The position numbers and the translations under genes are program-made. This document shows, one piece after another, positions 26,699-51,295 of a DNA stretch of 64,000 bases. How positions within the stretch are numbered: position 1 is the first letter of the stretch; every line of letters starts with the position of its first letter. Location: NCBI GenBank assembly GCA_027858965.1, contig JAQIBS010000107.1, positions 35,617-99,616 on the forward strand, written 5' to 3'. The stretch comes from Kiritimatiellia bacterium. GTDB taxonomy: Bacteria > Verrucomicrobiota > Kiritimatiellia > RFP12 > UBA1067. Under the pieces are notes generated by a model that was given only the letters and a program-made list of their open reading frames with translations, did no database searches and was not told the DNA's origin.

Positions 26699-28981
26699 AT
26701 GAAGTGTCATAAAATTGTATTCTCGATATGTGCGAGTGTCATATTGACCGCTATGTGTGTCAATGCCCAGGATTCTGGTCGATTGGTCGGTTGGTGGAAG
26801 ATGGATGAAGCCCCCGGAGCTACAACACTAGTGGATTCATCCGGTTATGGAAGAAATGCTACTCTTGGCACGGGAGCGTCTATTATTGATGGGCCGTTCG
26901 GTAAAGCTGTGCTTTTTGATGGCAGCGCCGATGCCTGGGCGGAGTTTGCCAATCCCTCGACTCTAACGAATTTCACCCTCTCCGCCTGGGTCAAGGTGAC
27001 TTCGTTTACAAACTCATATCCGAAGATGTTTCAGCTGGGTGGTTGCTACTATCAGTTCAACACAGCGAACCCAGGTAGATTCGGCCTTGGTATCGGTACT
27101 TCCCCCCGTGCGGACTGGATGTCTAATGGAACTGATCCATTTATTGCTGAAACAGGTAAGTGGTTGCATACTGCTGTTGTTATCAAGCGAAACTATACAA
27201 ATGCAACTGCCTGGATTGCCCAGCCTACCTTTTTTATCAACGGGGTGCGCTGTGGCACTCTGCAGACTCCGAAGAACTATTCGCCGGAGGCAGCGGGAGG
27301 TACCTATGGATATCTCGGCAATACCGGTCCCGGTGGAACCCGTGCGTTTGATGGAGCAATGGATGATGTCCGTATTTATGATCAGGTGCTCTCTGATCGT
27401 GAGATTCTTGATATCTATCAGAATTGCCCAGTTGCCGTTGATGCGGGAATAGACCGGATATGTCACCGCGCAACTGCCCAGCTGCAGGGCCGCTTGATCA
27501 GCACCAACCCCTACAGCGCCGCACGTCCGGCAACAAGTTTTTGGAGTGTTGTCTTATCGCCTGTAGGCAATCTGCCGATATTTGAAAATGACTCCCTGCC
27601 CTCGACATCGGTAACGCTGCCCGAGGATGGCGTTCATGTGTTCAGGCTGACCGCTGTCGGCGAACAGGGAATAACATCGAATGATGTTACCATTGTCCAC
27701 GATTCCGGTGAAGCTGCCGGCAATGCGGCACCGGTTGTCACCCTGCCTTGGTCGGCAACAACGGCCGTCTTCTCTCAGGGCATTGCTTTGTCAGGAGCTG
27801 TAACAGATGACAGTATGCCCTCGGCCACACCCTCCGTATGCTGGAGTAAAGTGAGTGGACCGGGTGGTGTTTTCTTTGACAATACCTTCACTGACACCAC
27901 CACCGCCTATTTCTCTGCCAATGGCATCTATGTTCTTCAACTGGAGGCCGATGATGGTGCGGCAACGGGATCTGATCAGGTGACAGTCACTGTGAACCTG
28001 CCGGCAGGAGACCTGACGGACGGGCTGATCCACTGGTGGCAGATGGATGAAGATCCTAAATTGACAAGTTCCTATGACTCTGCCGGTGCGAAGACGCTGA
28101 GCCTGCGTAACAAGACCCTTCTGCAGCCAGGCAAGACCGGGAACGGGCTTCGATTCCCGGTGCCGGCTTCTTATGCGCAGACCACGATTTTCACCAATGC
28201 GGAGAGCTTTACTTTCTCCCTCTGGCTCTATTATGATGCTGCCTACACCAATAATATTGGCAAGCGGATCTTTGATTATGGAACGTCGCGGTTCTACCTG
28301 TATTTCAACGGGGACAAGGTCTATCTGGCAACAAAAAATTTAGCGGAAACGCGTGATTATGCCTGGACCCAGCAAAATTACTCTCTGGAAAACGATAAAA
28401 GTAAGTGGGTCCATCTCGCGGTCACATATGACCGTCGTCCCAACCCCTCTATCGGACAGACGCAGACCTTCTATGTCAACGGTGTCTCAACTGGCTCTTC
28501 AGCGTTGACCGTTGCATACGATGGGTCAAAGGCCTTCACCCCCGGTGGTGAATTGAGAATTGGCGGCAATGGTTCAGTGCGCAATTTTGACGGGGTTTTC
28601 GACGACATGCGCGTCTATGACCGCCTGCTCTCTGAGGAGGAGGTCAAATTGCTGGCGGTGGATCCGGATAACAACCATGCGCCTGTTATTGAGGCCTCTG
28701 CCGCATTAACCACTCAGGTCGGGAAGCCGGTTGGTTCACTGGCCACGGTTTATGATGACGGGCAGCCCCGGGATCAGAGCCTTGCGACATCCTGGTCGGT
28801 GGTCTCAGGAGATGCCGGCAAAGTGATATTTGCGGATGATACAGACCCGGCCACCACCATCACAATTACCAAAACCGGTGAATATGTGTTGATGCTCTCC
28901 GCGACTGACGGTGAGTTGTCAAATGCCGTTAATATTCATATCACAGCCGCATCCTCCGGTACATTGCTGATGGTGCAATAA
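26699..28981 (+). CDS. Secreted concanavalin-A-like/LamG-domain protein with two LamG domains and Ig/PKD-like repeats
   Basis: Signal peptide, the LVGWWKMDEAPGATTLVDSSGYGRNATLG LamG N-terminal motif and the C-terminal DPDNNHAPVIEA Ig-like repeats. The start was set at the ATG at 26699, which has a GGAG Shine-Dalgarno. Confidence 0.7.
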   Translation: MKCHKIVFSICASVILTAMCVNAQDSGRLVGWWKMDEAPGATTLVDSSGYGRNATLGTGASIIDGPFGKAVLFDGSADAWAEFANPSTLTNFTLSAWVKVTSFTNSYPKMFQLGGCYYQFNTANPGRFGLGIGTSPRADWMSNGTDPFIAETGKWLHTAVVIKRNYTNATAWIAQPTFFINGVRCGTLQTPKNYSPEAAGGTYGYLGNTGPGGTRAFDGAMDDVRIYDQVLSDREILDIYQNCPVAVDAGIDRICHRATAQLQGRLISTNPYSAARPATSFWSVVLSPVGNLPIFENDSLPSTSVTLPEDGVHVFRLTAVGEQGITSNDVTIVHDSGEAAGNAAPVVTLPWSATTAVFSQGIALSGAVTDDSMPSATPSVCWSKVSGPGGVFFDNTFTDTTTAYFSANGIYVLQLEADDGAATGSDQVTVTVNLPAGDLTDGLIHWWQMDEDPKLTSSYDSAGAKTLSLRNKTLLQPGKTGNGLRFPVPASYAQTTIFTNAESFTFSLWLYYDAAYTNNIGKRIFDYGTSRFYLYFNGDKVYLATKNLAETRDYAWTQQNYSLENDKSKWVHLAVTYDRRPNPSIGQTQTFYVNGVSTGSSALTVAYDGSKAFTPGGELRIGGNGSVRNFDGVFDDMRVYDRLLSEEEVKLLAVDPDNNHAPVIEASAALTTQVGKPVGSLATVYDDGQPRDQSLATSWSVVSGDAGKVIFADDTDPATTITITKTGEYVLMLSATDGELSNAVNIHITAASSGTLLMVQ

Positions 28982-29000
28982 GTCGTCCAGATACCGGTCG

Positions 29001-29183
29001 AATTGGAGGGGCGCTGGCCCAGCGCCCGTGAGCAGGTGTCGAGCGTACGGATAGCGGACCGTGAGGCCACGGTCCCTCCAGAATCGCGGCGATGCCGCGA
29101 TCGGATTGACTTGCAGTTGCTGGCCTGACCCGCCGCGTGTGGCTTGAAATGGAGGGGCGCTGGCCCAGCGCCCGTGAGCAGGT
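29001..29183. repeat. Two direct copies (~38 bp, 145 bp apart) of a palindromic element GGAGGGGCGCTGGCCCAGCGCCCGTGAGCAGGT, with further hairpins between them
   Basis: Copies lie at 29001-29037 and 29146-29183. Each contains a perfect GGGCGCTGG/CCAGCGCCC palindrome. Confidence 0.75.
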
Positions 29184-29271
29184 ACTGAGCGTAGGGCATA
29201 AATAGCGTGGAAGAGCCAAAAGTTAACCCAGAGTTTAATACATACAGTTTTTACAGGAGAATATTTACCAA

Positions 29272-32200: not shown

Positions 32201-32598
32201 GCAAAGCAGGGGGCATTCTGCATTGGGCTGCTAATGGCTACCGCGGGGCTGACCCCTATGCCGGCAGCATTGGTCCATTGCCCAACGGCTCTACAACACC
32301 CGGACACCCACCAGGGGATAACTGGCTTTTCTACCCAACCGAACATGGTCTTACGGGGTCAATGCGCATGGCTGCCTTTCAGCAGGGAGTTGAGGATTAC
32401 GCACTTTTGAAGATTCTGCGCGCAAAGGATAATGCCGCCGCTGCCCCCATTGCTGATAGTATAGTTCATTCGATGGTTCTGGATTATCGTAACAAAGATA
32501 TCCGTTCCGATTATGCCAATAATGCTGCGAGCTACAGTGTTGCCCGGCAGCAGCTTCTGGAGAAACTGGATTCTTGCAGTGCCGCACCGGCACCGTAA
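29272..32598 (+). CDS. Multidomain secreted enzyme: sialate-O-acetylesterase-like SGNH domain (GQSNMEG), LamG domain, and a DUF4091-like glycoside-hydrolase-associated C-terminal domain
   Basis: The RVFLMGGQSNMEG motif, a central LamG-like region and a C-terminal region paralogous to the C-terminus of the 46058..48475 protein. Confidence 0.7.
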   Translation: MPSYKVLPLLQVSVMAAVCLILVQHANAKEWRVFLMGGQSNMEGVGIAAEAPQNLVSQPDIQLYHSPSVRSGLPANQWNSLASAGVSPSNFGSELSFAYRMAEALPGENIALIKHAKGGTKLTTLALHYEVTSWHPGTSVADSASFGVEFATFVHTVTNALAAIQAQGDTPIISGMLWVQGEADATSVDAGAAYEQNITRFIARVREQFAVPDIPFVCARILPYQTRPASVVVRQTLDDIDQDSGSPAAIPHVFTIHTEGLGIHTDNAHFNTPGQLGLGVLLAQSMSQRALNIAPQATPPTTAYWQFDESFGTSYLLDAVGTYHLDLQVSATNAPVLIERASQSVKPKFIDGTLPQANAGSLTQGWGMRRQYDESLDMRSQPWTFEAFFQNNAVGTQGNYEVIGGTRSAMSQYYGWRVIMSYGKIRFFATANNGETAHVLTNLRYDDGRVHHLAAIWNPDEGATGTMRLYIDGAPVGASAGKGDLGDDTDFAKLFALGGNITGTKEAPLISTYQWNGSLDEIRITAGALHPTQFLNAFPKGTLLKLSNVDPLDRLYPDRTPYASRCVAHVPRGGRAIFQFAVQTSADAGSVTLSAGSPVKKNGITLKNAPCVQVLRSVQVEANYCGCARTQVGKVPSSSVRAAVVRQAPFDVYEVLTDDAEIDLDGRYTYAAAVHVDIPREAEPGLYHGELTATLEGQGVVKSPFDIQVYRTSLPEQSPLDVIHWLWPEPQNLTDCPPPAWWSEEHWKLLEASGRTLHEYGDTVMFTPLFATENPLIRVVINSGSENSWSFDFDQFDRWVTMFKKQGFTRFFGKHISGYHSLFTFDQKTGAQKPLKFTFEEYHQAFLPAFYSAFYKHLCEHGWQKCYIQSLTDEPRIKALQRYEQMARSFRKHMPGIGITEALNHEFDQFSDFVDVPAWWYGYVYSKDWPDLIQQRIAAGKENWIYYACTPSPPHPNSHLDVPLWRCRVLPWVADYCKAGGILHWAANGYRGADPYAGSIGPLPNGSTTPGHPPGDNWLFYPTEHGLTGSMRMAAFQQGVEDYALLKILRAKDNAAAAPIADSIVHSMVLDYRNKDIRSDYANNAASYSVARQQLLEKLDSCSAAPAP

Positions 32599-32722
32599 TC
32601 AGGGTATTCGAATAACAACCCGATAATTAGAGAAAATAGTTGGGTATATCACAAGAGCTCAGTTCCTCCTCCGTCAAGACTCCGGCGTGACATGTTAGTT
32701 GCGGCGGAAAGTAGCTTTAGTT

Positions 32723-32732
32723 TGATATATCA
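32723..32732. promoter_or_regulatory. Additional TGATATATCA palindrome (candidate operator)
   Basis: Perfect 10-bp palindrome. It shares the 13-bp ATATATCAAAACC with the gntR upstream region at 26362-26374. Confidence 0.4.
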
Positions 32733-32987
32733 AAACCAGCGAATGCTTTTTACAGAGCCCGTATTTGAATTTTGTATTTGAGGTGGCGGCAGTTGATGGT
32801 CAAAAATCAGGGGGTTCTGTCGAAAGATCAATGAAGATTACGGGTGTTGTGTGTGTTTATCCCTTTTAATATTGGGTTTTACGAAATATATGGGTTTTGT
32901 AGATTATAATATAATTTTGATTAAGTTACCGCTCTGGAGAGATCTCTCGTTGCCTTGAATACGATAAATAATATATTGGCTTATCGG

Positions 32988-33016
32988 TTGACAATTTCAA
33001 TATGATATATCATAAT
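32988..33016 (+). promoter_or_regulatory. Sigma70-type promoter (TTGACA, 17 bp, CATAAT) with an embedded TGATATATCA palindrome, for LamG paralog 2
   Basis: 30 of 31 bp identical to the 26616-26644 block. Confidence 0.6.
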
Positions 33017-33064
33017 GTTACGCATTAACTGTAAGAGTTTGTTATCCTTCAGGTAGGAGATGTT

Positions 33065-35353
33065 ATGAAATCCAATATGAAACTATTTACTATGCTTCTG
33101 TGTATCGTATTCACTGGTTTTTTGGCTCAGGCGCAGCTCTCTGACCGTCTGATCGGCTGGTGGAGAATCGATGATGCCACTAATGCCACGACTCTGGTGG
33201 ATTCCTCGGGCAATGGACGAAATGCAACCATTGGCTCCGGTGTCGAAATTGTGGAGGACGGCCGTTTTGGCCGTGCAGCCCATTTTAACGGCACCAGTGA
33301 TGCCTGGGCCAGATTCTCCAATCCAACACTCTCAAATATGACTTTCGCTGCCTGGGTGTTTATGGAGAATACTAACAATATCATGCCGCGTATTATGCAG
33401 GTGTCTAGCGACACCTATTACCACATGCCCTCTAGTTCTCCGGGCCAGTTCACCCTCGGTGTGCGTAACAACAACTGGAGTACAAGTGTTCCCGACCCAT
33501 TTAAGTTTGAGACCAACACTTGGTTTCATGCCGCAGTTGTCTATCAACAACAGTATACCAATGCTACCGACCGCATCGTCTGGCCGACCTTCTATATCAA
33601 CGGCGTGCGCTGCGGTGACCCTCTGCCGCCCAAAGCCTTCCTTAATGCCCTCGCAGCTGGGCCGTCCTTCTATTTCGGGAATAATAGCAGCACTGGAATC
33701 CGTCCGCTTGAAGGCTTGATGGACGATGTTCGCCTCTATGACGCCCCGCTCTCTGACAAAGATATACTCTCCATCTATCAAAACAGCCCCCTCTCTGTCG
33801 ATGCGGGTGCAGATCAAACCGTCTACCGTGACACAACTGCATTGCAGGGGCGTTTGATCAATACCAACCCTTTTATGCGTGATTTGACCTCTGGAATAAA
33901 CTGGAGCACGGTTTCCGCACCGACGGGGGATGCGCCCGTTATTGAAACACCCTGGCTGCCTGCCTCAACCGTTACCCTGCCGGAAGCCGGCGATTACACC
34001 TTCCTATTAACTGCCGTCACCGAGCTCGGCACCGTTTCTAATGATGTCACCGTCACTCGTAACATCAGCGCCCCACCGGCTGGGAATATCGCTCCTGTTG
34101 TCACGCCGCTGGAGGCATCAATCAACAGCGTTCTTGGATCCGGTGTACCCCTCGAAGCAACCGTTACTGACGATGATATCCCCGGAGCCACGCATCTGTG
34201 CTGGAGTAAAATCAGTGGACCTGGCGCAGTCTTTTTTGACAATGCCTTTACCAGCAACACCGCCGCCTTTTTCTCCACCAATGGCACCTATGTTGTCCGA
34301 CTTGCAGCCGATGACGGCGACTTGCAAGGTAGCGCCGACATAACCGTTACTGTTGCTCTACCCTCGGGTGACATCTTCAATGGGCTTGAACACTGGTGGC
34401 AGATGAATGATGACCCGGTCCTGAAGAAAGCCTTTGACAGCGCCGCTGACAATACGCTCTCCCTCAATAACCTCGCTTTCCTCCAGCCCGGCAAAACGGG
34501 TAACGGCTATCGCGGCCCTAAACTTGATGCTGTGGGCGTGGCCGCCAGTCTCCCCACCAATGCCGAAACGATGACCTTTTCCTCCTGGTTCTTTTTTGAT
34601 GATGCTTATGTGCAGGGGGCCAGTGGCAATAAGTACCAGCGTCTCTTCAACTGCGGCCCAAACTTTTATATTCTCTATAATACAACCAATAATCACCTGG
34701 ACTTGTCCACACGGGGGATCGGCACTGGTGATACCCAGCACACGTGGTCATGGAGCACCGAATTCACCCCGAATACATGGTTCCACGTTTCGATCCTCTT
34801 CGACCGCCGCGCCGCCGCGAGCGGTTCGCGACAGGTGATGTATGTTAACGGGGAAAAGGTCTTTTCAGGTAACTTAAGCACTGCCTTTCCCGGTGCGGCC
34901 GCTTTCACATCCTCGTTCATCATCTCCAATACCGGCGCCAATAATGGCACTCGTAATTTCGATGGTGTGCTGGATGAAATGCGGGTCTACTCCCGTTTCA
35001 TTACAGATGAAGAGGCCCTCCTGCTGGCGGCCGATCCGGACAACAACCACGCTCCGGTAATTGAAGTCCCTGTTGTTCGGCTGGTCAAGGTCGGTCAGCT
35101 GGTTGCTCTCGAAGGGATGGTTACTGATGACGGTCAACCCTTCGGCAGCACTCTAATAAAAGGCTGGAGTGTCATCTCCGGTGATCAGAATGATGTGATT
35201 TTTGCCGATGCTTCCGACCCTGCCACTGACGCAAACTTCACGCGTACTGGAGAGTATGAAATCATGCTTTCCGCCACAGATGGCGAGCAGCAGGCGGCAA
35301 CGATTGTGCAGATTAACGCAGTTGATTCCGGCACGATTATATTGTTGCAATAA
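33065..35353 (+). CDS. Secreted LamG-domain protein, paralog of 26699..28981
   Basis: Same architecture and motifs (LIGWWRIDDATNATTLVDSSGNGRNATIG ... DPDNNHAPVIEV). Confidence 0.7.
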   Translation: MKSNMKLFTMLLCIVFTGFLAQAQLSDRLIGWWRIDDATNATTLVDSSGNGRNATIGSGVEIVEDGRFGRAAHFNGTSDAWARFSNPTLSNMTFAAWVFMENTNNIMPRIMQVSSDTYYHMPSSSPGQFTLGVRNNNWSTSVPDPFKFETNTWFHAAVVYQQQYTNATDRIVWPTFYINGVRCGDPLPPKAFLNALAAGPSFYFGNNSSTGIRPLEGLMDDVRLYDAPLSDKDILSIYQNSPLSVDAGADQTVYRDTTALQGRLINTNPFMRDLTSGINWSTVSAPTGDAPVIETPWLPASTVTLPEAGDYTFLLTAVTELGTVSNDVTVTRNISAPPAGNIAPVVTPLEASINSVLGSGVPLEATVTDDDIPGATHLCWSKISGPGAVFFDNAFTSNTAAFFSTNGTYVVRLAADDGDLQGSADITVTVALPSGDIFNGLEHWWQMNDDPVLKKAFDSAADNTLSLNNLAFLQPGKTGNGYRGPKLDAVGVAASLPTNAETMTFSSWFFFDDAYVQGASGNKYQRLFNCGPNFYILYNTTNNHLDLSTRGIGTGDTQHTWSWSTEFTPNTWFHVSILFDRRAAASGSRQVMYVNGEKVFSGNLSTAFPGAAAFTSSFIISNTGANNGTRNFDGVLDEMRVYSRFITDEEALLLAADPDNNHAPVIEVPVVRLVKVGQLVALEGMVTDDGQPFGSTLIKGWSVISGDQNDVIFADASDPATDANFTRTGEYEIMLSATDGEQQAATIVQINAVDSGTIILLQ

Positions 35354-35450: not shown

Positions 35451-37316
35451 ATGAATAATCATTTTTCTCTCAATCATGCGCTCTCTCTATTGATTTGCAC
35501 CTGCACCTTCCATGCAGCTGCCGTTACCCCTGCGGCCACTTCTTCAACGATCCCCGACATGCGGCACATAGCAACCGGATGGGAGATCCCCAGCAAGCAC
35601 TATGCCGATCAGCCCTACATCGTAAAAACCGATGACGGGGCCTGGCTCTGCTGTATCACCACTGGTAGTGGTCATGAAGGTACACCCGGTCAGCATGTGA
35701 TCTCAATGCGCAGTACCGATCAGGGTAAAACATGGTCTGCCCCCGTGGCTCTTGAACCCGCCGGTGGACCGGAAGCCTCTTATGCTGTCATGCTTAAAAC
35801 GCCTTATGGTCGCATTTACTGCTTCTATAATCATAATACCGACCGCGTTAAAGAGGTGAAGCGTGAGGACAAAGGTGTCTATAAACGTGTCGATTCCCTG
35901 GGTCACTATGTTTTCAAGTATACGGACGACCACGGTCGTTCATGGTCAAAGCAACGCTATGATATTCCCATGCGTACCTTCGATTGTGACAGCGAGAATG
36001 TTTACGGAGGAAAATTAAAATTCTTCTGGAACGTCGGGCGTCCGCTGATTTACAAAAATGCCGCCATCTGCGTGATCCATAAAGTCGGCGCTATGGGTGC
36101 GGGATTCTTTGCCCGCTCAGAGGGTGCCTTCCTGAAAAGTGAAAATATCCTGACAGAACGCGATCCTTCAAAGGTTAGCTTTAAAACACTCCCTGAGGGT
36201 ACCATCGGCCTGCGCACACCTCCGGGAGGCGGACGTGTTTCCGAAGAACAGAGTATCGTCGCGCTTAGCGACGGCTCCATCTTCTGCGTCTACCGCACCA
36301 TTGACGGCTGGCCCACCACCGCCTACAGCCGCGACGGTGCCCGGACCTGGAGCACTCCCGCCTACATGACCTACACGCCCGGTGGTAAACGCGTCAAACA
36401 TCCCCGTGCCGCAAACTTTGTGTGGAAATGCTCCAATGGTAAATTCCTCTATTGGTTCCATAATCATGGCGGACGTTTTATCGGTGAACTTGGTGCTAAC
36501 GGTAAAAACGGGCAGAGTCCATATGATGATCGTAATCCTGCATGGCTCATGGCCGGCCGTGAGATTGACACACCAAAGGGTCGCATGCTTGAATGGTCAC
36601 AGCCGGAGATACTGCTCTATGATGATGATCCCGCCGTCCGCATGAGTTACCCTGATCTGGTGGAGGAGAATGGAAAGTTCTATGTTACGGAGACCCAGAA
36701 AGTTATTGGGCATACCCATCTGATTGACTCTGCCTTGGTGAACGGTTTATTCAACCAGTGGGAGAATAAATCTGTTGCTGAAAAGGGGCTGATTCTGAAT
36801 CTTTCAAACAAAAAACCTATGCCCTCTCAAGCTAAGATGCCAGGATTGCCGGCAATCACCAAGAAAGATAAAGATCTGCGGAAAGGCTGTAGCATTGACC
36901 TGTGGCTGAAAGCTGATGAGCTTACACCTGGACAACCTCTTCTCGACAGCCGTGATAATGATGGCAGGGGACTTCTCGTTTCGATTGCAGAGAAGGGCGC
37001 ACTCCGCATTCTCTTTAGTGATGGACGAACCGAGGCCTCCTGGTCCAGTGACAACGGACTCCTGAAAGCCGGCACTGCGCATCATGCCGTGATTACCGTG
37101 GATGGTGGTCCCAAAATTATCACCTTTGTTGTTGATGGAACGCTTTGCGATGGAGGCGACCAGCGCCAGTTTGGATGGGGTCGCTTCAGTCGCGACCTGC
37201 GTACATTCAACGGTGCGTCTATGCTGAAAATCGACCCCGCAGTTCAATCACTGCGCATTTATAACCGTGCCATCCGTACCAGTGAGGCAGTTGGAAATTT
37301 CAAGGCTGGATTGTAA
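35451..37316 (+). CDS. BNR-repeat exo-alpha-sialidase-like glycosidase with a C-terminal LamG-like domain
   Basis: Signal peptide and BNR motifs STDQGKTWSAP, TDDHGRSWSKQ and SRDGARTWSTP. The start was set at the ATG at 35451. Confidence 0.7.
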   Translation: MNNHFSLNHALSLLICTCTFHAAAVTPAATSSTIPDMRHIATGWEIPSKHYADQPYIVKTDDGAWLCCITTGSGHEGTPGQHVISMRSTDQGKTWSAPVALEPAGGPEASYAVMLKTPYGRIYCFYNHNTDRVKEVKREDKGVYKRVDSLGHYVFKYTDDHGRSWSKQRYDIPMRTFDCDSENVYGGKLKFFWNVGRPLIYKNAAICVIHKVGAMGAGFFARSEGAFLKSENILTERDPSKVSFKTLPEGTIGLRTPPGGGRVSEEQSIVALSDGSIFCVYRTIDGWPTTAYSRDGARTWSTPAYMTYTPGGKRVKHPRAANFVWKCSNGKFLYWFHNHGGRFIGELGANGKNGQSPYDDRNPAWLMAGREIDTPKGRMLEWSQPEILLYDDDPAVRMSYPDLVEENGKFYVTETQKVIGHTHLIDSALVNGLFNQWENKSVAEKGLILNLSNKKPMPSQAKMPGLPAITKKDKDLRKGCSIDLWLKADELTPGQPLLDSRDNDGRGLLVSIAEKGALRILFSDGRTEASWSSDNGLLKAGTAHHAVITVDGGPKIITFVVDGTLCDGGDQRQFGWGRFSRDLRTFNGASMLKIDPAVQSLRIYNRAIRTSEAVGNFKAGL

Positions 37317-37318
37317 TC

Positions 37319-38422
37319 ATGGGTAATGGCTGGCAGAAAAGTATGCATGACCGCGTGGAGCTGTTTCAACAGTTTCATTGTCGGGAGAATGCACGTCCGC
37401 TGTTTGGCTTTTTTAAAGGCAGCGAATACCCTTTGACGCGCTATCCTTTCAGCCAGATTCTCCCCGAAGGCCGTGAGCTGCAGCCTGATGATTTTGATGT
37501 CGCCGCTTTTGTCGATAATGCCGAACAGCTCTTTCTTGAGCATGAAGCCTGTGGCGGAGATTTTATTTACAGCGCCAGCGCCTTCTGGGGTATTCCCTGG
37601 TTAGAGGCCTCTCTGGGCTGCCCGCTTTTTGCCAATCAGACCACCGGTTCAATTTACTGTGAGCCGCCATCGAATTTTTCTGTCGATTCAGTGCCGTCTT
37701 TTAACCGCAACAATCCCTGGATACGCCTGATGGTGGATATGCTCTCTGCGTTGGCGCAGAGAAGCGCCGGTCGCTTTCCTTTGGCAACCACCCGCATGCG
37801 TGGTGTGGCCGATCTGCTCTCTGCATTGTATGGCGGCGATGCTTTTGTTTTTGCATTGTTTGATAAACCAGATGAAGTTATGCAGGTTTGCCGTTGTGTT
37901 ACCGATCATTTTATTCAGTGCGCTGCGCTGCAGTTGGAGCATATACCGGATTTCTACGGTGGGATAGGTTCGTTTTACTATTACATGTGGGCTGCAAAGG
38001 GGACGGTGTGGCATCAGGAGGATGCCGCGGCTTTGCTATCCCCCGATCTATATACACAGTTTGTCGAACCATTTGATCGTCAGATTGTCGCATCTTTCCC
38101 GCATGTAGTCATGCATCAGCACTCAACCGGATTTGTTCCAACCGAGAAATATCTTGAAATGGGTATGAGTGTGCTGGAATTGCATATCGACAGCGGGGGA
38201 CCATCCGCCCGTGACTTATACGAACGTCATCTGGCAATTCTTGAGAAGTGCCCTCTTCTTATCTGGGGTGATATTCCGAAAGAAGACCTCGACTGGATTT
38301 TCTGCAAGCTTCCCGTACAAGGGCTTGCTATAATAACAGTGGTCAAAGATGCCGATGAGGCACAACAACTATGGGAGCGCTATGTCAAGCATCCGATAGA
38401 ATGCAGGTGTTTAGGTGTTTAG
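37319..38422 (+). CDS. Conserved hypothetical protein, possibly URO-D/MtaA-like (beta/alpha)8 fold
   Basis: Only weak resemblance to uroporphyrinogen-decarboxylase-family proteins. It starts 3 bp after the sialidase stop, and its last codons lie in a TAG-rich repeat. Confidence 0.4.
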   Translation: MGNGWQKSMHDRVELFQQFHCRENARPLFGFFKGSEYPLTRYPFSQILPEGRELQPDDFDVAAFVDNAEQLFLEHEACGGDFIYSASAFWGIPWLEASLGCPLFANQTTGSIYCEPPSNFSVDSVPSFNRNNPWIRLMVDMLSALAQRSAGRFPLATTRMRGVADLLSALYGGDAFVFALFDKPDEVMQVCRCVTDHFIQCAALQLEHIPDFYGGIGSFYYYMWAAKGTVWHQEDAAALLSPDLYTQFVEPFDRQIVASFPHVVMHQHSTGFVPTEKYLEMGMSVLELHIDSGGPSARDLYERHLAILEKCPLLIWGDIPKEDLDWIFCKLPVQGLAIITVVKDADEAQQLWERYVKHPIECRCLGV

Positions 38423-38590: not shown

Positions 38591-38634
38591 GTCTTTTGGG
38601 ACGCGGATGAATTATAAACCAGGAGAGACATACC

Positions 38635-40026
38635 ATGAGTATCAATAAATATAAAACACATTCGCGCGGGGTCGCTCTTGCGACCTGTCTGTTATCCATT
38701 ATTTTTTCGGGCACTGCGCTTGCCGCACCCAAATCAAATATCATTGAATCACCCGCCGACCTTAAGGAGCGGATTCCCTCTCAGATAAAAATTACGAAAC
38801 CCGATTTTGTTGTTTTTGTTCCGGAGGTCACCGAGTCAGGTGTCAATGATACCGGTAACGAGCATTTCCTTGTCTTTGATGGACCGGATGGTTCGCTGAT
38901 GGCAGTCTGGACTCAGAGTTCCGCTGAGTCGCAGCCCGATCAGCATCAGGCATTTGCCCGCAGTGATGATGAAGGAAAAACCTGGACCAAACCGCGCATT
39001 ATTGCAGGACCCAAAAAACCCGGTGACGGACATATGGCCAGCTGGGGTTATCCGCTTGTCAGCAAATCCGGGCGTATCTACATTCTCTATAGTCAGCACA
39101 TCGGACGGGTTGATAATTTTCCGCACCACACCGGCTGGCTGCACGGCATCTACAGCGATGACAATGGCGCCACCTGGTCCAAACCCCAGAATGTCCCGCT
39201 TCGTCGCAGCATCCGTGACAACCCCGATACCACCATGCCACCCAATGTTCTCTGCTGGCAGAAACCGAACCGCCTCGGCAAAGATGGAAAATACTTTGCT
39301 GGTATAACCCGCTGGACCAGCTTCGCTGTTACAAAGCAACCCACTAAATCGTGGATGTCCGCCGATGCGCGGGTTGAGTTCATGCGCTTTGAAAACATCG
39401 ATGCCAATCCCGAACCGAAGGACATCAAAATCTCCTGGTTTGCTTTTAACGAAAAAGCCCTTTCCGTACCTTATCCGGAAGCTCCCCAGGTCAGCGCCTG
39501 TCAGGAACCGTCGGTTGTTAAACTTCCTGATGGACGTCTCTTCTGTGTGATGCGCACCGCATCTGGCAGCCCTTACTGGAGTGTTAGTGCAGATATCGGA
39601 GAAACCTGGTCAAAGACAAAACCTCTGCTGCGTAAAGATGGTGGCGCACCTCTACTGCATCCTCTCTCTCCCTGTCCCATGTATGATGTGGGCGGGAACA
39701 CAGCCGGTAGTGGAAACTATGTGCTCTTTATTCATAATCATGACGGGCACTATAAAAACTTTGGTCCTCGTGATAGCAGCAACCATCGCCGCCCGATTAA
39801 TATCGTGCGTGGTCATTTCAAAGCGGGTGCCGATCAGCCGGTCTGGTTTGATGAACCGGAGTTGTTTTTTGATCACGATGGTGTCAGTCTTGGCAAACCC
39901 GGCACCAAAGGCCGCACGGATCTCTCTCTCTATTCAAGTTTTACCGTCCGTAATGGCGTTCCTGTACTCTGGTATCCTGAGCGCAAGTTCTTCCTGCTCG
40001 GTAAAATAATCAAAGCGGCGAAATAA
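38635..40026 (+). CDS. BNR-repeat sialidase-like secreted protein
   Basis: Signal peptide and BNR motifs SDDEGKTWTKP, SDDNGATWSKP and SADIGETWSKT. Confidence 0.7.
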   Translation: MSINKYKTHSRGVALATCLLSIIFSGTALAAPKSNIIESPADLKERIPSQIKITKPDFVVFVPEVTESGVNDTGNEHFLVFDGPDGSLMAVWTQSSAESQPDQHQAFARSDDEGKTWTKPRIIAGPKKPGDGHMASWGYPLVSKSGRIYILYSQHIGRVDNFPHHTGWLHGIYSDDNGATWSKPQNVPLRRSIRDNPDTTMPPNVLCWQKPNRLGKDGKYFAGITRWTSFAVTKQPTKSWMSADARVEFMRFENIDANPEPKDIKISWFAFNEKALSVPYPEAPQVSACQEPSVVKLPDGRLFCVMRTASGSPYWSVSADIGETWSKTKPLLRKDGGAPLLHPLSPCPMYDVGGNTAGSGNYVLFIHNHDGHYKNFGPRDSSNHRRPINIVRGHFKAGADQPVWFDEPELFFDHDGVSLGKPGTKGRTDLSLYSSFTVRNGVPVLWYPERKFFLLGKIIKAAK

Positions 40027-40315
40027 TGTGGAGTAGCGAGTGGTGAATTATTTGACTCGAACTTTGTCTCGCACTTAGTCTGGTTTGACAAGGTGTGAGA
40101 CAAGGAAGTCGTTCGCTATGCGGGCGACTGCGGGTGGTACGCGAATGATCAGGTTACGCAAAATGGTCAGCCGCGTAGCGACTGCCCTCCTTAATCAGCA
40201 CTTTATCAAAGACAAATGATGATAAATATTAAATAGACAACTTTTCGGAAACAACCATTAAGTGTATTTTCTAGCCACAGACGGGCTTGAAATTTGAACC
40301 ACGGATGAACCACTG

Positions 40316-42820
40316 ATGAACACATATGTACACAGACATAGCTTAAGCGCCGTTTTTTGCGCGCAGCGACGCAAAGACGCAGAGGCAAGAAAGCCTTCTT
40401 TCAGCGGAGCTGATTTGAGATGGACATCCCTGCTACCCCGCCTTCCTTTTAGTGTATTTCGTAGTTCAAAACTTTTTATTCTGTCGTTATTCATTTTTGG
40501 CTGTACCGCATCTCTTGCAGACACATCTCGCAACTGGCAGCACTACTCTGTGTATCAGCCGCGCATTGAACGCTCATTTGTTGTTGATGCCGCCGCACAA
40601 CCTTTGCGTTATAATCACGACAGCACCATTGCCTGGTTTAAAGACCGTTGGTTCTGCCTCTGGAATGCCAATACCGTTCCCCGGGAAGGGGCGTCGGGTC
40701 AGCTCAACTATGTAAGCACCAGTCGCGACGGAATAGAGTGGTCGGCACCACTCCCCGTGTTTTCCGCTCCTGAACAGAGCCTTAATCCCGTGCTTTGTTC
40801 CAAAGGGACGCAGTGGCAGCCAAACCTGCTCGTGGTCGGGAACCGTCTCTGGTGTCTCTGGAGCCAGCACTCAAAAGACACTCACAAGGGCTGTTATTTT
40901 TCCGTATTGGATAACCCTGACGGCAAGTGGTCCAATCGACAGCTGAGTTGGAACGGGGAGACCAATCCCGTCATTGACGGTACTCCATTCCGACTCTTTC
41001 CCACACAGAATCCGGTTCGTCTCAGCACGGGCCGCGTGCTCGCTCCGGTCACCATGATGGGCCCTCTTTCAAAAATGGCCCCGCCTGGAAAAAAAGGCTG
41101 GGCCTGGCTTGAAAAACGCAATAGCGTGATCTACAGCGATGATAACGGCGTAACGTGGCAAGTCTCGCCCGGTACCGTCCTGCCGGGACTGGATTGGCGG
41201 CAGTGGGAGCCGACCGTTTTTGAACAGCCGGATGGATCGGTACTGATGTTCGCCCGCAATAATATCATCCCCGGCACGGAGGATAGTTCTGCCAGCACGA
41301 CCGAGACCCTCACCTGGTCTATCTCGCATGACCACGGAGTTACCTGGTCACCGCATGCCTATGTCCCGTTGCAGACGGTCATCTCGCGCATGCATGTGCT
41401 GAACCAGAATACAACGTCATCCCCGGCAATGACCGACCGCTTTATCATGATTCACAACGATTGGCTCTCAGGAACCTTTGGTGCCGACCGCCGCAACCTG
41501 GCCCTCTTCTTCAACCGTGGTAGCGGCATCGATTTTGTTGCGGGAACTGGTCTCACCGGACAGGAGTACCAGGTGGCTTATCCTCAGATGTTCCTGCACG
41601 ATGGTAAGCTGCTGGCCTCCTATAGTCAGGGTCCCTGCGCAATGCGCAACATCAAGGTGGTGAGTGTTACGCCGCTGCCCGACCCGAAAAAATTCTATAT
41701 CTATCCGCGGAACAACCTGCCGCCATCGCCACGTTGCGCCATCAAAGACGATGCATTGATCCTCAACGGAGGTCTTGCATTGAAGGGCCGTGTCGCCCCG
41801 GTTATTGCTCAGGAGGGGCTCAGCTGTGCGGCCTGGATCAAGGCGGATGATGGCGGTGTGTTTTTTGATAACAGGGGAGCCCGCAGCGGTTTCGTCTGGG
41901 GGCTCTCAGGCTTCTGCTTTGTTCATCTGGGCCAGCCCGCCATCAACATCATCTCTAAGATAGCGGTAGCGCGTGATCGCTGGAACTACGTTGGCGTGAC
42001 AATCAATTATCAAAAGGGAGAAGTTCATTTTTTTGTGAATGACGAACACGATTACGTTTCCTTTAAACCTGCCTCCCGAAGTATGCAGGGAAACAGCTTT
42101 ACGGTTGGTGGCCCCAATTTGGCAGCCAGCTCTCTTTCCGCATTTGAAGGTTCCTTCCGCTCATTCGCGCTTTATGGTGATAAACGCCTGTCGGTATCCG
42201 AACACCGGCAGCTTTTCGAAAACCGGAGCGCCACACTTCCACCGATGCAACCGGCTTTGCGGTTTGATCCATCAGACGTAACTGCGCTCAATCGGGATTT
42301 TATTTTCCCTGCGGTAAATGCATCGGTATCGGAATCGGTGCAGACCGCTGAACTGGACGGACGCCCTGTTTTGCGTTTTGAGGGAGGCGCATCCGCCGGC
42401 ATTGAACTGGCTGCCAATGAGCGTTCAACCGGCGATGCAGTTGAACTGAACTTCAGTTTTAAAGTTGAGGGAGAAGGGGAACAGACCCTCTGCACTGTGG
42501 GAGATGCCAATCAGCCGGCGCGCATTGTTCTGCGGGAGAATAATATCATGCTTGTTGCTGGTGAGCAGACCCGCTCCTGTGGCAAAGTGCAATCGGGAGT
42601 ATGGCAGCGTTTATCGCTTTCATCATGCGGAGATTCTACAAAGGCTGTTCTTGACGATCAACCGCCTGTTGAAATCCGACACACCCCTGAGGCCACCTGG
42701 CTCTACCTAGGAGAAGGCTACCGCTCCGGCACTCCGCCAATTGTCGACACCGTTTTCGTGATCGACATCGCCTCCGTGCGGAGCCGCATCCTCCACCCCC
42801 GTGAAAAGAGCCACCCATGA
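40316..42820 (+). CDS. BNR-repeat sialidase-like lipoprotein with a C-terminal LamG-like domain
   Basis: Lipobox LFIFGCTAS and BNR motifs SRDGIEWSAP, SDDNGVTWQVS and SHDHGVTWSPH. The true start is probably an internal TTG near 40403. Confidence 0.65.
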   Translation: MNTYVHRHSLSAVFCAQRRKDAEARKPSFSGADLRWTSLLPRLPFSVFRSSKLFILSLFIFGCTASLADTSRNWQHYSVYQPRIERSFVVDAAAQPLRYNHDSTIAWFKDRWFCLWNANTVPREGASGQLNYVSTSRDGIEWSAPLPVFSAPEQSLNPVLCSKGTQWQPNLLVVGNRLWCLWSQHSKDTHKGCYFSVLDNPDGKWSNRQLSWNGETNPVIDGTPFRLFPTQNPVRLSTGRVLAPVTMMGPLSKMAPPGKKGWAWLEKRNSVIYSDDNGVTWQVSPGTVLPGLDWRQWEPTVFEQPDGSVLMFARNNIIPGTEDSSASTTETLTWSISHDHGVTWSPHAYVPLQTVISRMHVLNQNTTSSPAMTDRFIMIHNDWLSGTFGADRRNLALFFNRGSGIDFVAGTGLTGQEYQVAYPQMFLHDGKLLASYSQGPCAMRNIKVVSVTPLPDPKKFYIYPRNNLPPSPRCAIKDDALILNGGLALKGRVAPVIAQEGLSCAAWIKADDGGVFFDNRGARSGFVWGLSGFCFVHLGQPAINIISKIAVARDRWNYVGVTINYQKGEVHFFVNDEHDYVSFKPASRSMQGNSFTVGGPNLAASSLSAFEGSFRSFALYGDKRLSVSEHRQLFENRSATLPPMQPALRFDPSDVTALNRDFIFPAVNASVSESVQTAELDGRPVLRFEGGASAGIELAANERSTGDAVELNFSFKVEGEGEQTLCTVGDANQPARIVLRENNIMLVAGEQTRSCGKVQSGVWQRLSLSSCGDSTKAVLDDQPPVEIRHTPEATWLYLGEGYRSGTPPIVDTVFVIDIASVRSRILHPREKSHP

Positions 42821-43495
42821 AAATACCGCGTTACCCTTGTTCAATACTTCTTGCCTGCGTATTTCTCCTGCTGGCCTTTACGGCGGCGGCGGAACGGCCC
42901 AACGTCTTGCTTATTCTCTCGGATGACCAGGGCTATGGGGACCTCTCGCTTCATGACAATCCACACCTGCGTACACCGAACCTCGACAAGCTGGGACGGA
43001 ACAGCGTGCGCTTCGATCGCTTCTATGTGAGTTCAGTTTGCGCCCCGACCCGTGCCTCGCTTCTGACAGGCCGCTGGCCGTTGCGCACAGGCTGTCATGG
43101 TGTCACCCATAACCGCGAGACCATGCTGGACAGTGAAGTGACAATCGCAGAGGCACTTTCCGGAGCTGGGTACCGCAACGGCTGTTTCGGCAAGTGGCAC
43201 AATGGTAGCCATTACCCATTTACACCGCAGGGGCAGGGTTTCGAGACGTTCTTCGGCTACCTTGCCCACGCTGCGCCACACGCCCCCTTACAGGCCCCGC
43301 AACCGCTGATCGAGAAATACAAGGCACGCTTGAAAGGGCAAGTCGATGAGCCGGTGGCTGTCATCTACGCAATGATCGAACAAATGGACATAGGCTTATG
43401 ACGCGTGGTTCGACGAGGTGTTAGCCGAATGGACACAAGCTTGGTCGGCCATCCGCGCGCATGATGCGGCCTACTGGCGCAATCGCCCGCAATAG
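42817..43495 (+). pseudogene. Arylsulfatase-family gene with an internal deletion/frameshift (194-aa N-terminal part plus an out-of-frame C-terminal remnant)
   Basis: N-terminal LLILSDDQGYGD...CAPTRASLLTGRWP...GKWH sulfatase motifs, ending at 43401. A sulfatase-like C-terminal tail (WFDEVLAEWTQAW...) lies at 43403-43495 in another frame. An ATGA start/stop overlap couples it to the upstream gene. Confidence 0.55.
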
Positions 43496-43526
43496 AGATC
43501 TTCATAATGCACGAAGTTTGTAGCGA

Positions 43527-43632
43527 GGCATAGTCGCAACCAATTTTTTGACAGGATTGACGCTCTCCCGCTAAGCGGGATCACTGCCACTACAAGGGTG
43601 GCCTTACTAAACTACGTTTTGTTTTCCAGGAT
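43527..43632 (+). repeat. Copy of a structured intergenic repeat (element X: GCATAGYCGCAACC...TTGACAGGATT...GGCCACCCTTGTGGTGG hairpin)
   Basis: Other copies lie at 5340-5400 (short form), 8292-8372 (inverted) and 45790-45850 (partial). Confidence 0.65.
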
Positions 43633-43641
43633 TAACATGAT

Positions 43642-44682
43642 ATGAAAAAAATTAATGATTATGTAACGAAGGTATGTGCCACCAACTCTCTATTGTGCGG
43701 GACTCTGCCCCGCTTGATTATGGGGGCTCTTCTTTTGACCATCTTCGGCGGTTGCGGTTCCAAAGCGGAAAAGCCGAAGATTGTGCGGGTTGCCTACGCC
43801 CCGGGTCCCTCTGAACTTCTGCATCGTGCGGCGCAACAGTTTGCCGAGAAGGTCAAAGCTGACTCTGGAGGAAAGCTGGTTGTACGGCTCTACCCAAGTG
43901 GACAGCTGGGCAATGAGCGTGAACTGATAGAGGGGTTAAAACTGGGCAGTGTTGATATGACTGTGACCGGCCTGGCGATTATCGGATGGTATGCCCCGGA
44001 GTATGGAGCATTTGAGGTTCCCTTTCTTTGGCGTGATTACGATCATGTTAATCTGGTGTGGAACGGGCCCATCGGCATGGAAGTTCGTAAGGTAATGCAG
44101 AAGCGTGCCGGTGCGCGCCTGATGCAGCCGTGGTTCCGTGGACCGCGCTACCTGACTACCAGCTCCCGCAAGGTGCTCAGCCCTGATGACCTCAAAGGAC
44201 TCAAATTGCGTGTTCCTGAGCTGGAGGTATACATTAAAGCATGGAAGGCATTCGGAGCCAATGTAACACCGATCCCTTTCACCGATATTTTTATGGCACT
44301 TAAATTAGGTGTGGTGGAGGGACAGGAAAATCCTTTAGCTACGATCTACGCCAATCATCTGCAGGAGGTCCAGAAATACATCATGGAGACGCGTCATCTG
44401 ATCAGCTTTTACGTGCCGGCATTCGGTCCCAGCCTGGACAAACGTTTTACTGAAGAGGAACGTAATTTATTAATAGAGGCTCTGGACTCATCAACTGCCT
44501 GGCATAACCTGGAGGTGGAACGTGCTGAGTCTGAGTATCGTCAGAAACTGGAAGCTGATGGAGCTGAATTTGTGGCACTAGATGCTGAGCCTTTCCGCAA
44601 ACTGGCCTGTGAGCGCATACCGCCTCAATTCGAGAAAGTCTGGAAACCCGGCCTCTACCAGCGTATTAGTGAGAGTCGCTGA
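43642..44682 (+). CDS. dctP: TRAP transporter substrate-binding lipoprotein (DctP/SiaP family)
   Basis: Lipobox IFGGCGS and DctP family similarity throughout. It is encoded away from the dctQM genes at 23.5-25.4 kb. Confidence 0.8.
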   Translation: MKKINDYVTKVCATNSLLCGTLPRLIMGALLLTIFGGCGSKAEKPKIVRVAYAPGPSELLHRAAQQFAEKVKADSGGKLVVRLYPSGQLGNERELIEGLKLGSVDMTVTGLAIIGWYAPEYGAFEVPFLWRDYDHVNLVWNGPIGMEVRKVMQKRAGARLMQPWFRGPRYLTTSSRKVLSPDDLKGLKLRVPELEVYIKAWKAFGANVTPIPFTDIFMALKLGVVEGQENPLATIYANHLQEVQKYIMETRHLISFYVPAFGPSLDKRFTEEERNLLIEALDSSTAWHNLEVERAESEYRQKLEADGAEFVALDAEPFRKLACERIPPQFEKVWKPGLYQRISESR

Positions 44683-51281: not shown

Positions 51282-51295
51282 ACAGACTCTTCTTT

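Follow-up and report, generated by a model that had tools for sequence, protein, structure and literature searches.

The 64-kb window analysed here (the whole stretch of 64,000 nucleotides) carries what we read, giving it about an even chance, as a GntR/FCD-controlled, non-Sus glycan locus that releases and catabolises a carboxylated, sialic-acid-like sugar other than Neu5Ac. The standard enzymes of sialic acid breakdown are missing from the window, so the substrate is probably another acidic sugar. The first-pass annotation had assigned positions 26699-44682 to secreted glycan degradation in a PVC bacterium, without Sus organisation; both points are supported (SusC and SusD each count zero in the window). 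The bacterium is an uncultured member of the Kiritimatiellae, the NCBI name for the source of a 100% identical protein being 'Kiritimatiellae bacterium'. The Pfam annotation it had proposed recovered the named domains in place, including BNR_2, SASA and GH123_cat, with a match for every named gene. The permease, aldolase, reductase and GntR genes, which it had set about 20 kb from dctP, indeed lie at that distance in a minus-strand operon (21526-26342) that directly adjoins the locus in divergent orientation (Table 1). Signal peptides or lipoboxes can be read on all extracytoplasmic parts, and the URO-D-like protein has neither.

Table 1. Genes and control regions of the locus and its flanks, by window position.
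Feature	Position	Strand	Evidence
D-isomer 2-hydroxyacid dehydrogenase (2-HADH; PGDH/GhrB-like)	21526..22539	-	2-Hacid_dh_C 1.8e-46; last gene of divergent catabolic operon
Class II HpcH/HpaI-family 2-keto-3-deoxy-acid aldolase	22628..23383	-	HpcH_HpaI 5.9e-36
DctM, TRAP large permease	23540..24823	-	Pfam DctM 7e-114
DctQ, TRAP small permease	24811..25392	-	Pfam DctQ 2.7e-30; 13-nt overlap with dctM
GntR-family regulator, FCD ligand domain	25629..26342	-	Pfam GntR 4e-14, FCD 1.4e-15
Divergent control region	26359..26646	none	Palindrome-like sites TTAATATATCAA (26359), TTGTTATGTCAA (26379)
LamG-PKD-LamG-PKD protein A, secreted	26699..28981	+	Pfam Laminin_G_3 9e-41, K319L-like PKD 1.9e-13; signal peptide visible
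SASA/SGNH esterase + LamG + GH123-type protein, secreted, 1108 aa	29272..32598	+	Pfam SASA 8e-33, LamG_3 4e-13, GH123_cat (former DUF4091) 5e-45; PDB match
Second control region	32721..33018	none	Palindrome TTTGATATATCAAA (32721); promoter/palindrome block (32987-33018)
LamG-PKD-LamG-PKD protein B, secreted	33065..35353	+	Pfam LamG_3 1e-33, PKD-like
BNR1, secreted six-bladed sialidase-fold propeller + C-terminal LamG	35451..37316	+	BNR_2 7e-12, LamG_3 1.5e-9
URO-D/MtaA-fold TIM-barrel protein, cytoplasmic	37319..38422	+	Begins 2 nt past BNR1
BNR2, secreted single-domain sialidase-fold propeller	38635..40026	+	BNR_2 4.6e-18
BNR3, putative lipoprotein, distinct sialidase-like propeller + LamG-like C-terminal modules	40316..42820	+	BNR_2 9e-13
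Sulfatase remnant, 194 aa, CAPTR motif	42817..43401	+	Sulfatase 1e-25, profile positions 1-124/301
DctP, TRAP solute-binding protein, lipobox (IFGGC)	43642..44682	+	Pfam DctP 4.6e-69
Unknown 167-aa protein	44841..45344	+	No Pfam or NCBIfam match
GH123-like protein, secreted, convergent	46058..48475	-	GH123_cat 1.2e-6 (28.6 bits, cutoff 23.1)

The three BNR proteins are predicted from their sequences to be ketosidic hydrolases. They show the GH33 fold, a six-bladed beta-propeller with Asp-box (SxDxGxTW) repeats, at 11-20% identity to GH33 structures, and the sequence similarity of BNR1 and BNR3 to GH33 is marginal (E 0.005-0.03). BNR1, annotated by NCBI as an exo-alpha-sialidase, starts at the ATG at 35451 rather than at the TTG at 35202; homologs of its type number more than 4100 and are 65-85% identical across Kiritimatiellota, Verrucomicrobiota and Planctomycetota. 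BNR2 is its paralog (28% identity, E 1e-24), with a family profile that matches PDB sialidases at 2e-16. The BNR3 profile matches sialidases at 1e-5 and BT1020 at 0.58; BNR3 family members carry PF24067, which also matches BNR3 itself as a weak BT_1020-like signal. LamG tails had been ascribed to two of these proteins: that of BNR1 is firm, and that of BNR3 is weak (LamG_3 at 24 bits, under the 27.6 cutoff), with PF13385 carried by members of its family. In weak profile alignments, not structure coordinates, the catalytic Glu and second Arg of sialidases are kept in BNR1 (E266/R282), BNR2 (E291/R307) and BNR3 (E298/R314), the Glu being invariant in the BNR1 and BNR3 families and at least 90% conserved in that of BNR2. 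Conserved candidates for the third triad Arg are present in the BNR families, and the candidate Tyr residues Y400, Y447 and Y422 were assigned by a common YP motif alone. The first triad residue of GH33, the Arg of the RIP motif, is missing at the homologous position of these alignments (BNR1 D53, BNR2 E76, BNR3 N100), and the BNR substrate may therefore not be bound like sialic acid. A different conserved Arg nearer the N-terminus might make up for this loss; in the BNR2 family, no Arg among residues 1-146 reaches 90% conservation.

The 1108-aa protein joins two further predicted activities. Its SASA module (PF03629, 114 bits), which has a GQSNMEG serine motif and a C-terminal DNAH (Asp-x-x-His), is a predicted SGNH O-acetylesterase of the sialate O-acetylesterase-like kind. 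Activity in the GH123/DUF4091 family is defined by a DE motif (PMC11087588); the GH123 module (PF13320, 154.8 bits) has the catalytic Asp-Glu pair, matches PDB 8k2j at 4e-44 along its entire catalytic region, where the DEP residues of the two proteins align ('SLTDEP' in the locus module), and is a predicted GH123-type beta-N-acetylgalactosaminidase. LamG-PKD proteins A and B are full-length paralogs (47% identity); protein A has no catalytic domain and is a putative glycan-binding or scaffold protein. Where a complete S1 formylglycine sulfatase has a domain of about 450-500 aa, the remnant covers profile positions 1-124 of 301 alone, with no continuation in any downstream frame; a homologous Verrucomicrobia cluster has a full-length sulfatase. 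The unknown 167-aa protein is kept with the locus in close relatives only (L001, L002) and is absent from 80 related loci. Beyond the range of the first-pass annotation lies a second GH123-like secreted protein (46058-48475, minus strand), possibly an accessory enzyme, with a signal peptide, an 'LLVDEP' motif and a weak discoidin-like N-terminal domain.

Among the proteins of uptake and catabolism, DctP is closer to 4pc9, an unnamed putative C4-dicarboxylate-binding protein (4.7e-51), than to SiaP (2.8e-42). Its carboxylate-binding Arg/Arg/Asn triad is conserved equally in 4pc9, 4ovt and 4pdd as in SiaP and therefore does not discriminate between ligands; its nearest sequence relatives we take to be aldonate binders rather than SiaP. 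The HpcH aldolase has YfaU (2vws, 2.9e-38) as its best PDB match and stays below every NCBIfam equivalog cutoff, and the 2-HADH likewise reaches none. The URO-D-like protein scores 20.4 bits in Pfam, under the 23.9 cutoff, and at 10-13% identity has only the fold in common with the URO-D/MtaA/MetE superfamily; its family has an invariant HxH. With a sub-threshold score, this HxH and no corrinoid partner in the loci examined, it falls outside the URO-D/MtaA family proper.

The divergent control region contains a promoter block with TTGACA-17-CATAAT and the perfect palindrome TATGATATATCATA (26615-26646), and the block at 32987-33018 is identical to this one upstream of LamG-PKD protein A. All five window matches to TTGATATATCAA at two or fewer mismatches fall within the divergent control region and the 32.7-33.0 kb region; outside these two promoter regions of the locus, the window search gave no further copy of the candidate operator palindrome. 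From these sequences we infer an operator role for the palindromes of the divergent region. In Verrucomicrobia, a GntR/FCD gene lies directly upstream of BNR1 homologs.

On comparative evidence, the gene arrangement is not due to chance: the locus is also present in two JGI metagenomes, and its core is syntenic across phyla. This core, comprising a BNR hydrolase, a transporter, one to three URO-D-family paralogs, an HpcH aldolase and a 2-HADH, forms compact operons in Planctomycetota, Verrucomicrobiota, Lentisphaerota, Bacteroidota, Spirochaetota and Bacillota, for example BNR2-UROD-DctQMP-HpcH-2HADH (L056), BNR1-UROD x3-HpcH-2HADH (L034) and GntR-DctQMP-UROD-BNR1 (L036). Of 80 species-level loci, 31-37 have HpcH, 27-33 have 2-HADH and 26-28 have BNR1/2 at a distance of 10 kb or less from the URO-D-like gene. 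LamG-PKD, GH123, SASA and BNR3 are linked to the core in just 1-4 of the 80; accessories restricted to particular lineages thus comprise the SASA esterase, GH123, the LamG-PKD proteins and what is left of the sulfatase. A Bacteroidota Sus-type PUL has equal content plus GH20, sulfatases and esterases (including GxDLY). The homologous loci come mostly from digesters, groundwater and sediments, not from animal hosts.

We propose the following hypothetical scheme, in which we infer the direction of flow, the class of sugar and the chemistry of the URO-D-like step: (i) secreted or lipid-anchored enzymes would attack an anionic glycan outside the cytoplasm, the SASA module stripping O-acetyl groups and the GH123 module beta-GalNAc or Gal-GalNAc while LamG and PKD modules hold the substrate; (ii) the three sialidase-fold BNR exo-hydrolases would free a carboxylated sugar resembling sialic acid, which most likely belongs to the 3-deoxy-2-ulosonic acids but is not Neu5Ac, for instance a Kdn-, Kdo-, Dha- or bacterial nonulosonic-type residue; (iii) the lipoprotein DctP would capture this sugar for import by DctQM; (iv) the cytoplasmic URO-D-fold enzyme, the class II HpcH aldolase and the D-2-hydroxyacid dehydrogenase would convert it to pyruvate and a small oxo- or hydroxy-acid, a route that would replace NanA/NanK/NanE.

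The sugar class is where this scheme meets its main rivals. 'Probably sialoglycan or mucin', as first annotated, is not supported as stated, and a canonical locus with Neu5Ac sialidases, a sialate O-acetylesterase, a SiaPQM-equivalent TRAP transporter and nan genes elsewhere in the genome seems to us distinctly improbable. Window ORFs of at least 150 aa encode no domain of NanA (DHDPS-family), NanK (ROK) or NanE over 64 kb of genome, so that neither a NanA, NanK and NanE cluster nor a NanE-II/RokA variant occurs there, and nan families are missing from the top 25 Pfam families, by frequency, of 115 neighbours in the 80 related loci. The transporter is instead operonic with the HpcH aldolase, 2-HADH and URO-D paralogs. 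The sialidase fold of the BNR proteins, the NCBI label of BNR1, the SASA domain, the SiaP match of DctP with its triad kept, the resemblance of the FCD-type regulator to NanR and the GH20 and GxDLY esterases of the Bacteroidota relative, as in host-glycan PULs, would fit such a locus. Against it, sequence similarity to GH33 is marginal, the RIP Arg is missing at the homologous position, DctP is closer to 4pc9 than to SiaP, and the sources are mostly not host-associated. We regard as unlikely a non-ulosonic substrate, for instance a sulfated fucose-rich or uronic polysaccharide, with the module catabolising an aldonic, uronic or 6-deoxy sugar acid; the URO-D-fold enzymes would then be dehydratases or isomerases. 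In about 10 of the 80 loci the module occurs together with GH29 fucosidases and sulfatases, which would also fit a sulfated fucan-type substrate, and the 2-HADH has no obvious role following Kdo or Kdn cleavage; both count against our preferred reading, as do the missing RIP Arg and the nearest relatives of DctP. However, ketosidase-typical Glu/Arg/Arg/Tyr candidates are conserved, the window has neither GH29 nor a functional sulfatase, TRAP systems import acids and there are no aldonic acids in glycosidic linkage, and the BNR hydrolase is the sole releasing enzyme in the compact operons.

Very improbable is a reading in which the 18-kb stretch is not one unit at all and an unrelated organic-acid TRAP operon happens to adjoin LamG/BNR surface proteins of a sort that PVC genomes commonly encode. 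Intergenic gaps of 212-466 nt, several internal terminator-like sites and the rare linkage of the accessories to the core elsewhere would suit such a juxtaposition, but the hydrolase genes have dctQM at their near end and dctP at their far end, a mere 2 nt separates BNR1 from the URO-D-like gene, the locus reuses promoter and palindrome elements, and BNR, TRAP, URO-D, HpcH and 2-HADH genes form single operons in several phyla.

Returning to an acidic sugar other than Neu5Ac, we tentatively raise, as a possibility we find more doubtful than not, that the conserved core, with a TRAP/MFS importer and a BNR hydrolase lacking the RIP Arg, is a pathway, so far undescribed and spread across phyla, for an acidic sugar that is not a sialic acid; no description of it was found in the literature searched. 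Candidate sugars include Kdo or Dha, and Kdo catabolic routes are unconfirmed in gut microbes other than B. theta (2026 preprint). If true, BNR1 and BNR2 would form a clade that ranks as a new family or subfamily of glycoside hydrolases, and a role in carbohydrate catabolism would be the first for the URO-D superfamily. BNR1-type proteins are very abundant and routinely annotated 'exo-alpha-sialidase', so metagenomic surveys of sediments, groundwater and digesters probably over-call the use of sialic acid. A catabolic route for acid sugars that has no characterised member is suggested by the URO-D-fold/HpcH/2-HADH module; the identity of its substrate would give function to thousands of genes and show which anionic glycan, of bacterial envelope or EPS, algal or plant origin, is eaten by anaerobic PVC bacteria, Bacteroidota and others.

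With nan clusters (GH33, SiaPQM, NanS, NanR) the locus shares its overall logic and, for the outer steps, its protein folds: a secreted sialidase-fold hydrolase, a predicted SASA-type O-acetylesterase, a DctP-type protein with carboxylate triad, an FCD-type GntR regulator and an aldolase predicted to yield pyruvate. It differs in that the aldolase is class II HpcH rather than class I NanA, NanK and NanE are absent, a URO-D-fold enzyme and a 2-HADH are present, and the hydrolases lack the RIP Arg. MtaA has the zinc motif H-x-C...C and a corrinoid partner; the locus protein has HxH where MtaA has its zinc HxC, the loci examined showed no corrinoid or B12-binding protein, and URO-D-like proteins of this type sit in sugar-acid operons, often as 2-3 paralogs. 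Among GH123/DUF4091 beta-N-acetylgalactosaminidases, the nearest is 8k2j, of the oligosaccharide/monosaccharide-releasing type, which shares the DE motif, whereas the locus module is fused to a SASA esterase and LamG. Bacteroidota Sus-type PULs likewise co-localise secreted CAZymes, binding proteins, a transporter and a regulator, and one relative encodes the enzyme set of the locus within a SusC/D PUL; in contrast, the window has no adjacent TonB-dependent SusC and SusD, and an inner-membrane TRAP system would take up a monosaccharide acid. The B. thetaiotaomicron RG-II PUL with BT1020 (GH143 Dha hydrolase, PF24067), to which BNR3 and its family are linked by the PF24067 match, is comparable in having a sialidase-like propeller whose substrate is not a sialic acid but a 3-deoxy-2-ulosonic (aldaric) acid.

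ORF listing and Pfam scans of the window recovered every element named in the first-pass annotation, which had described a secreted, PVC-type glycan locus outside the Sus paradigm; the latter reading is supported, with SusC and SusD genes absent from the window. Signal peptides were found on all extracytoplasmic proteins, with lipoboxes instead in BNR3 and DctP, and the cytoplasmic URO-D/MtaA-fold TIM-barrel protein (URO-D-like) carries neither. The putative binding-type paralogs LamG-PKD A and B are 47% identical. The sulfatase fragment is a true remnant, since its missing half was found in no downstream frame, which excludes a frameshift rescue. Anaerobe housekeeping genes (class I fumarase, ack-pta and priA) flank the locus, two JGI metagenome contigs carry the same locus, and NCBIfam offers no equivalog-level name for the locus proteins.

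Gene map of the glycan locus and its neighbouring genes (coordinates refer to the window)
Feature	Position	Strand	Evidence
GntR/FCD, DctQ, DctM, HpcH/HpaI aldolase, D-2-hydroxyacid dehydrogenase (2-HADH)	21526-26342	- (divergent from locus)	ORF/Pfam
LamG-PKD protein A	26699-28981	+	ORF/Pfam
SASA esterase + LamG + GH123_cat (former DUF4091) fusion	29272-32598	+	ORF/Pfam
LamG-PKD protein B	33065-35353	+	ORF/Pfam
BNR1, LamG tail	35451-37316	+	ORF/Pfam
URO-D-like protein	37319-38422	+	ORF/Pfam
BNR2	38635-40026	+	ORF/Pfam
BNR3	40316-42820	+	ORF/Pfam
Sulfatase fragment, 194 aa	42817-43401	+	ORF/Pfam
DctP binding protein	43642-44682	+	ORF/Pfam
Further secreted GH123-like protein, convergent	46058-48475		ORF/Pfam, signal peptide

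BNR2 is a paralog of BNR1 (28% identity, E 1e-24); a relationship between BNR3 and BNR1 is not detectable by BLAST. Single-sequence PDB searches matched sialidases at 0.005 for BNR1 and 0.03 for BNR3, both marginal, and at 4.5e-9 for BNR2, and family profiles reached 1e-7, 1e-5 and 2e-16, respectively. Because these searches and profiles match sialidases, the BNR proteins do not turn out to be GH43- or GH32-type propellers, the possibility against which the first-pass annotation had set its sialidase assignment, and BNR1-3 are sialidase-fold proteins. Membership of BNR3 in GH143 (BT1020) is not supported, as PF24067 stayed under its cutoff and 5mqr scored E 0.58 vs 1e-5 for sialidases. In profile alignments, the sialidase catalytic Glu and second Arg have conserved counterparts in each of the three families (E266/R282 in BNR1, E291/R307 in BNR2, E298/R314 in BNR3). 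Each family also conserves an 'R-x-P/N' segment (R361, R385 and R392 in BNR1, BNR2 and BNR3) and a 'YP' motif (Y400, Y447 and Y422), whose Arg and Tyr may correspond to the third Arg and to the Tyr nucleophile. At the position homologous to the RIP-motif Arg, the profile alignments of BNR1-3 show no conserved Arg: NanA 'YRIPALLKTDKGTL' aligns to BNR1 'ADQPYIVKTDDGAW', which places D53 at the position of this Arg, where BNR2 has 'NEHF' and BNR3 'YNHD', and the BNR2 family has no Arg conserved to at least 90% within its first 146 residues. The apparent loss is supported with moderate strength, since a more N-terminal conserved Arg (e.g. BNR1 R38) might compensate. The NCBI entry 100% identical to BNR1 is named 'MAG: exo-alpha-sialidase [Kiritimatiellae bacterium]'. 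Among homologous proteins, BNR3-type propellers also occur fused to a DctP domain (P0288, 1081 aa, which may be a gene-call fusion) and to a GH29 alpha-L-fucosidase (P0345 and, in locus L005, 1164-5177; 1337-1377 aa).

The residues of the URO-D-like protein that are invariant in 30 homologs (H266-x-H268, E287, H289, D291, R159, R161, E234 and D235) suggest a metal site unlike the zinc motif of MtaA, which is H-x-C. A corrinoid-dependent O-demethylase role was rejected, as the window and the related loci examined show no B12-binding protein and HxC gives way to an invariant HxH. The aldolase, a generic class II member of the HpcH/HpaI/GarL/YfaU group, has YfaU as its best PDB match (3e-38) and falls below every NCBIfam equivalog cutoff, and the dehydrogenase is PGDH/GhrB-like. 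For DctP, 4pc9 ranked first in the PDB (5e-51), followed by 4ovt and 4pdd, all three of which we take to be aldonate complexes, and then by SiaP (3e-42). The Arg/Arg/Asn carboxylate site is kept in DctP, yet it is common to all four of these binders, so that the ligand is predicted to be a carboxylate, with no finer resolution; as a sialic-acid test, the SiaP triad is uninformative, being also present in non-sialic binders. The GH123 module of the esterase fusion matches 8k2j, a solved oligosaccharide/monosaccharide-releasing beta-N-acetylgalactosaminidase, at 4e-44, with the catalytic DE pair aligned ('SLTDEP' here vs 'HLADEP' in 8k2j), and the SASA module carries GQSNMEG and a DNAH motif. 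A published survey detected the DE motif in every active enzyme that it tested and in 94% of DUF4091 proteins (PMC11087588). Two adjoining GDSL/SGNH esterase genes (309 and 452 aa; 5602-8047, minus strand), 18 kb upstream of the locus, may encode further deacetylases.

BNR1 with LamG has more than 4100 homologs among the Kiritimatiellae, Verrucomicrobia and Planctomycetes, with identities of 65-85%; for the URO-D-like family the number is 532. Scanning species-representative genomes gave 80 loci. They come from the PVC phyla, Spirochaetota, Bacillota, Bifidobacteriaceae, Calditrichia and Bacteroidota, the last of which include the cultured Maribellus maritimus 5E3. At distances of up to 10 kb from the URO-D-like gene, HpcH aldolases were present in 31-37 of the 80 loci, 2-HADH in 27-33, BNR1/2-type propellers in 26-28 and further URO-D-family paralogs, assigned to PF01208 in Pfam, in 15 + 6; less frequent were sulfatases (10-14), GH29 (10), TRAP (7-8), SASA (7), MFS (6), BNR3 (4), LamG-PKD (2) and GH123 (1). 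Neighbour ORF families were defined as single-linkage clusters, in which GH29 and BNR, joined via fusion proteins, were separated by reference BLAST. URO-D was again the commonest family among 115 unlabelled neighbours, and DHDPS/NanA, ROK and NanE were not found within their 25 most frequent families. The functional link between BNR hydrolase, transporter, URO-D-family paralogs, HpcH aldolase and 2-HADH, which we term the core module, is made explicit by three compact operons: L056 packs BNR2, URO-D-like, DctQ, DctM, DctP, HpcH and 2-HADH into 7.6 kb, L034 joins BNR1 to three URO-D paralogs, HpcH and 2-HADH, and L036 comprises GntR, DctQMP, URO-D paralogs and BNR1. Gene sets also recur in the wider neighbourhoods. 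The neighbourhood in Verrucomicrobiae holds GntR/FCD, BNR1, CBM9-GH123, a full-length sulfatase, MFS and URO-D-like; in a Bacillota MAG, the genes for LacI and URO-D-like diverge from those for HpcH, 2-HADH and a second URO-D-like protein; and in a Sus-type PUL of Bacteroidota, URO-D-like is accompanied by six BNR proteins, of which four have LamG, by no fewer than four sulfatases, and by GxDLY esterases and GH20. Loci L010 and L012 of close relatives carry an extra LamG + GH42-like gene (836-841 aa) between BNR1 and URO-D-like (L010 7451-9976, L012 5506-8016) and a beta-helix (+LamG) protein (L010 3428-5278, L012 9082-12177). Both are absent from the window, which indicates rapid turnover of the accessory set.

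Upstream of both LamG-PKD genes lies an identical 32-nt block (26615-26646 and 32987-33018) consisting of TTGACA, 17 nt and CATAAT, with the perfect palindrome TATGATATATCATA overlying the -10. Related palindromes are located beside the gntR start (26359, 26379) and at 32721; all five matches to the motif in the window fall within two intergenic regions, and the motif is a candidate GntR/FCD operator. Two elements, TTTTTTGACAGGATT and CAGGATTAACATGAT, are shared by the regions preceding HpcH (23469-23500, minus strand) and dctP (43544-43558 / 43627-43641), which suggests that the aldolase gene and the remote gene for the binding protein are controlled together. The LamG-A/SASA intergenic region contains the GC-rich inverted repeat GGGCGCTGGCCCAGCGCCC twice (29009-29027, 29155-29173), along with other GC-rich hairpins at 29056 and 29083. 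At the C-terminus of each LamG-PKD protein is a short hydrophobic tail, SGT(L/I)(L/I)(M/L)(V/L)Q (28958-28981, 35330-35353), which may be a sorting signal; we know of no described motif that matches it. Adjoining the locus is a dense sensor kinase/response regulator block (48633-59113, minus strand), which includes a hybrid PAS kinase, an SBP_bac_3-PAS protein and a PocR + dCache + PAS protein. Elsewhere, 8799-10362 holds a 226-aa ORF that combines an MGS domain with no more than the first 59 positions of the AICARFT/IMPCHase profile, and next to it a PHP-domain protein; the ORF resembles a purH that has been truncated or split. Two plus-strand ORFs lack matches, one of 622 aa (17145-19013) in Pfam and one of 167 aa (44841-45344) in Pfam and NCBIfam.

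The accessories of the core module in the Kiritimatiellae locus, namely the esterase/GH123 fusion, two LamG-PKD proteins, BNR3 as third propeller and the sulfatase remnant, imply an O-acetylated, beta-GalNAc-bearing, ancestrally sulfated anionic glycan. The proposed sialoglycan or mucin is not supported in that wording: Neu5Ac is an unlikely target because nan genes are lacking in the window, the RIP Arg is missing and the sources are mostly environmental. Alternatively, the substrate of the propellers may be a non-ulosonic sugar within a sulfated, fucan-like polymer, as GH29 and sulfatase accompany the module and YfaU is nearest to the aldolase. Since the Tyr, Glu and Arg candidates and a carboxylate transporter are kept, a 3-deoxy-2-ulosonic acid other than Neu5Ac appears to be the most economical reading. 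One such acid, Kdo, is released from RG-II by B. theta, and pathways for it are unconfirmed in other gut microbes according to a recent preprint.

No description of the cross-phylum module was found in the literature searched, and its members are widely mis-annotated as sialidases. We propose that in the core module one sialidase-fold enzyme would release a sugar acid, one acid transporter would import it, and a short catabolic route would end at a pyruvate-forming aldolase. This logic is the same as that of a nan cluster, whereas the set of catabolic enzymes is different.
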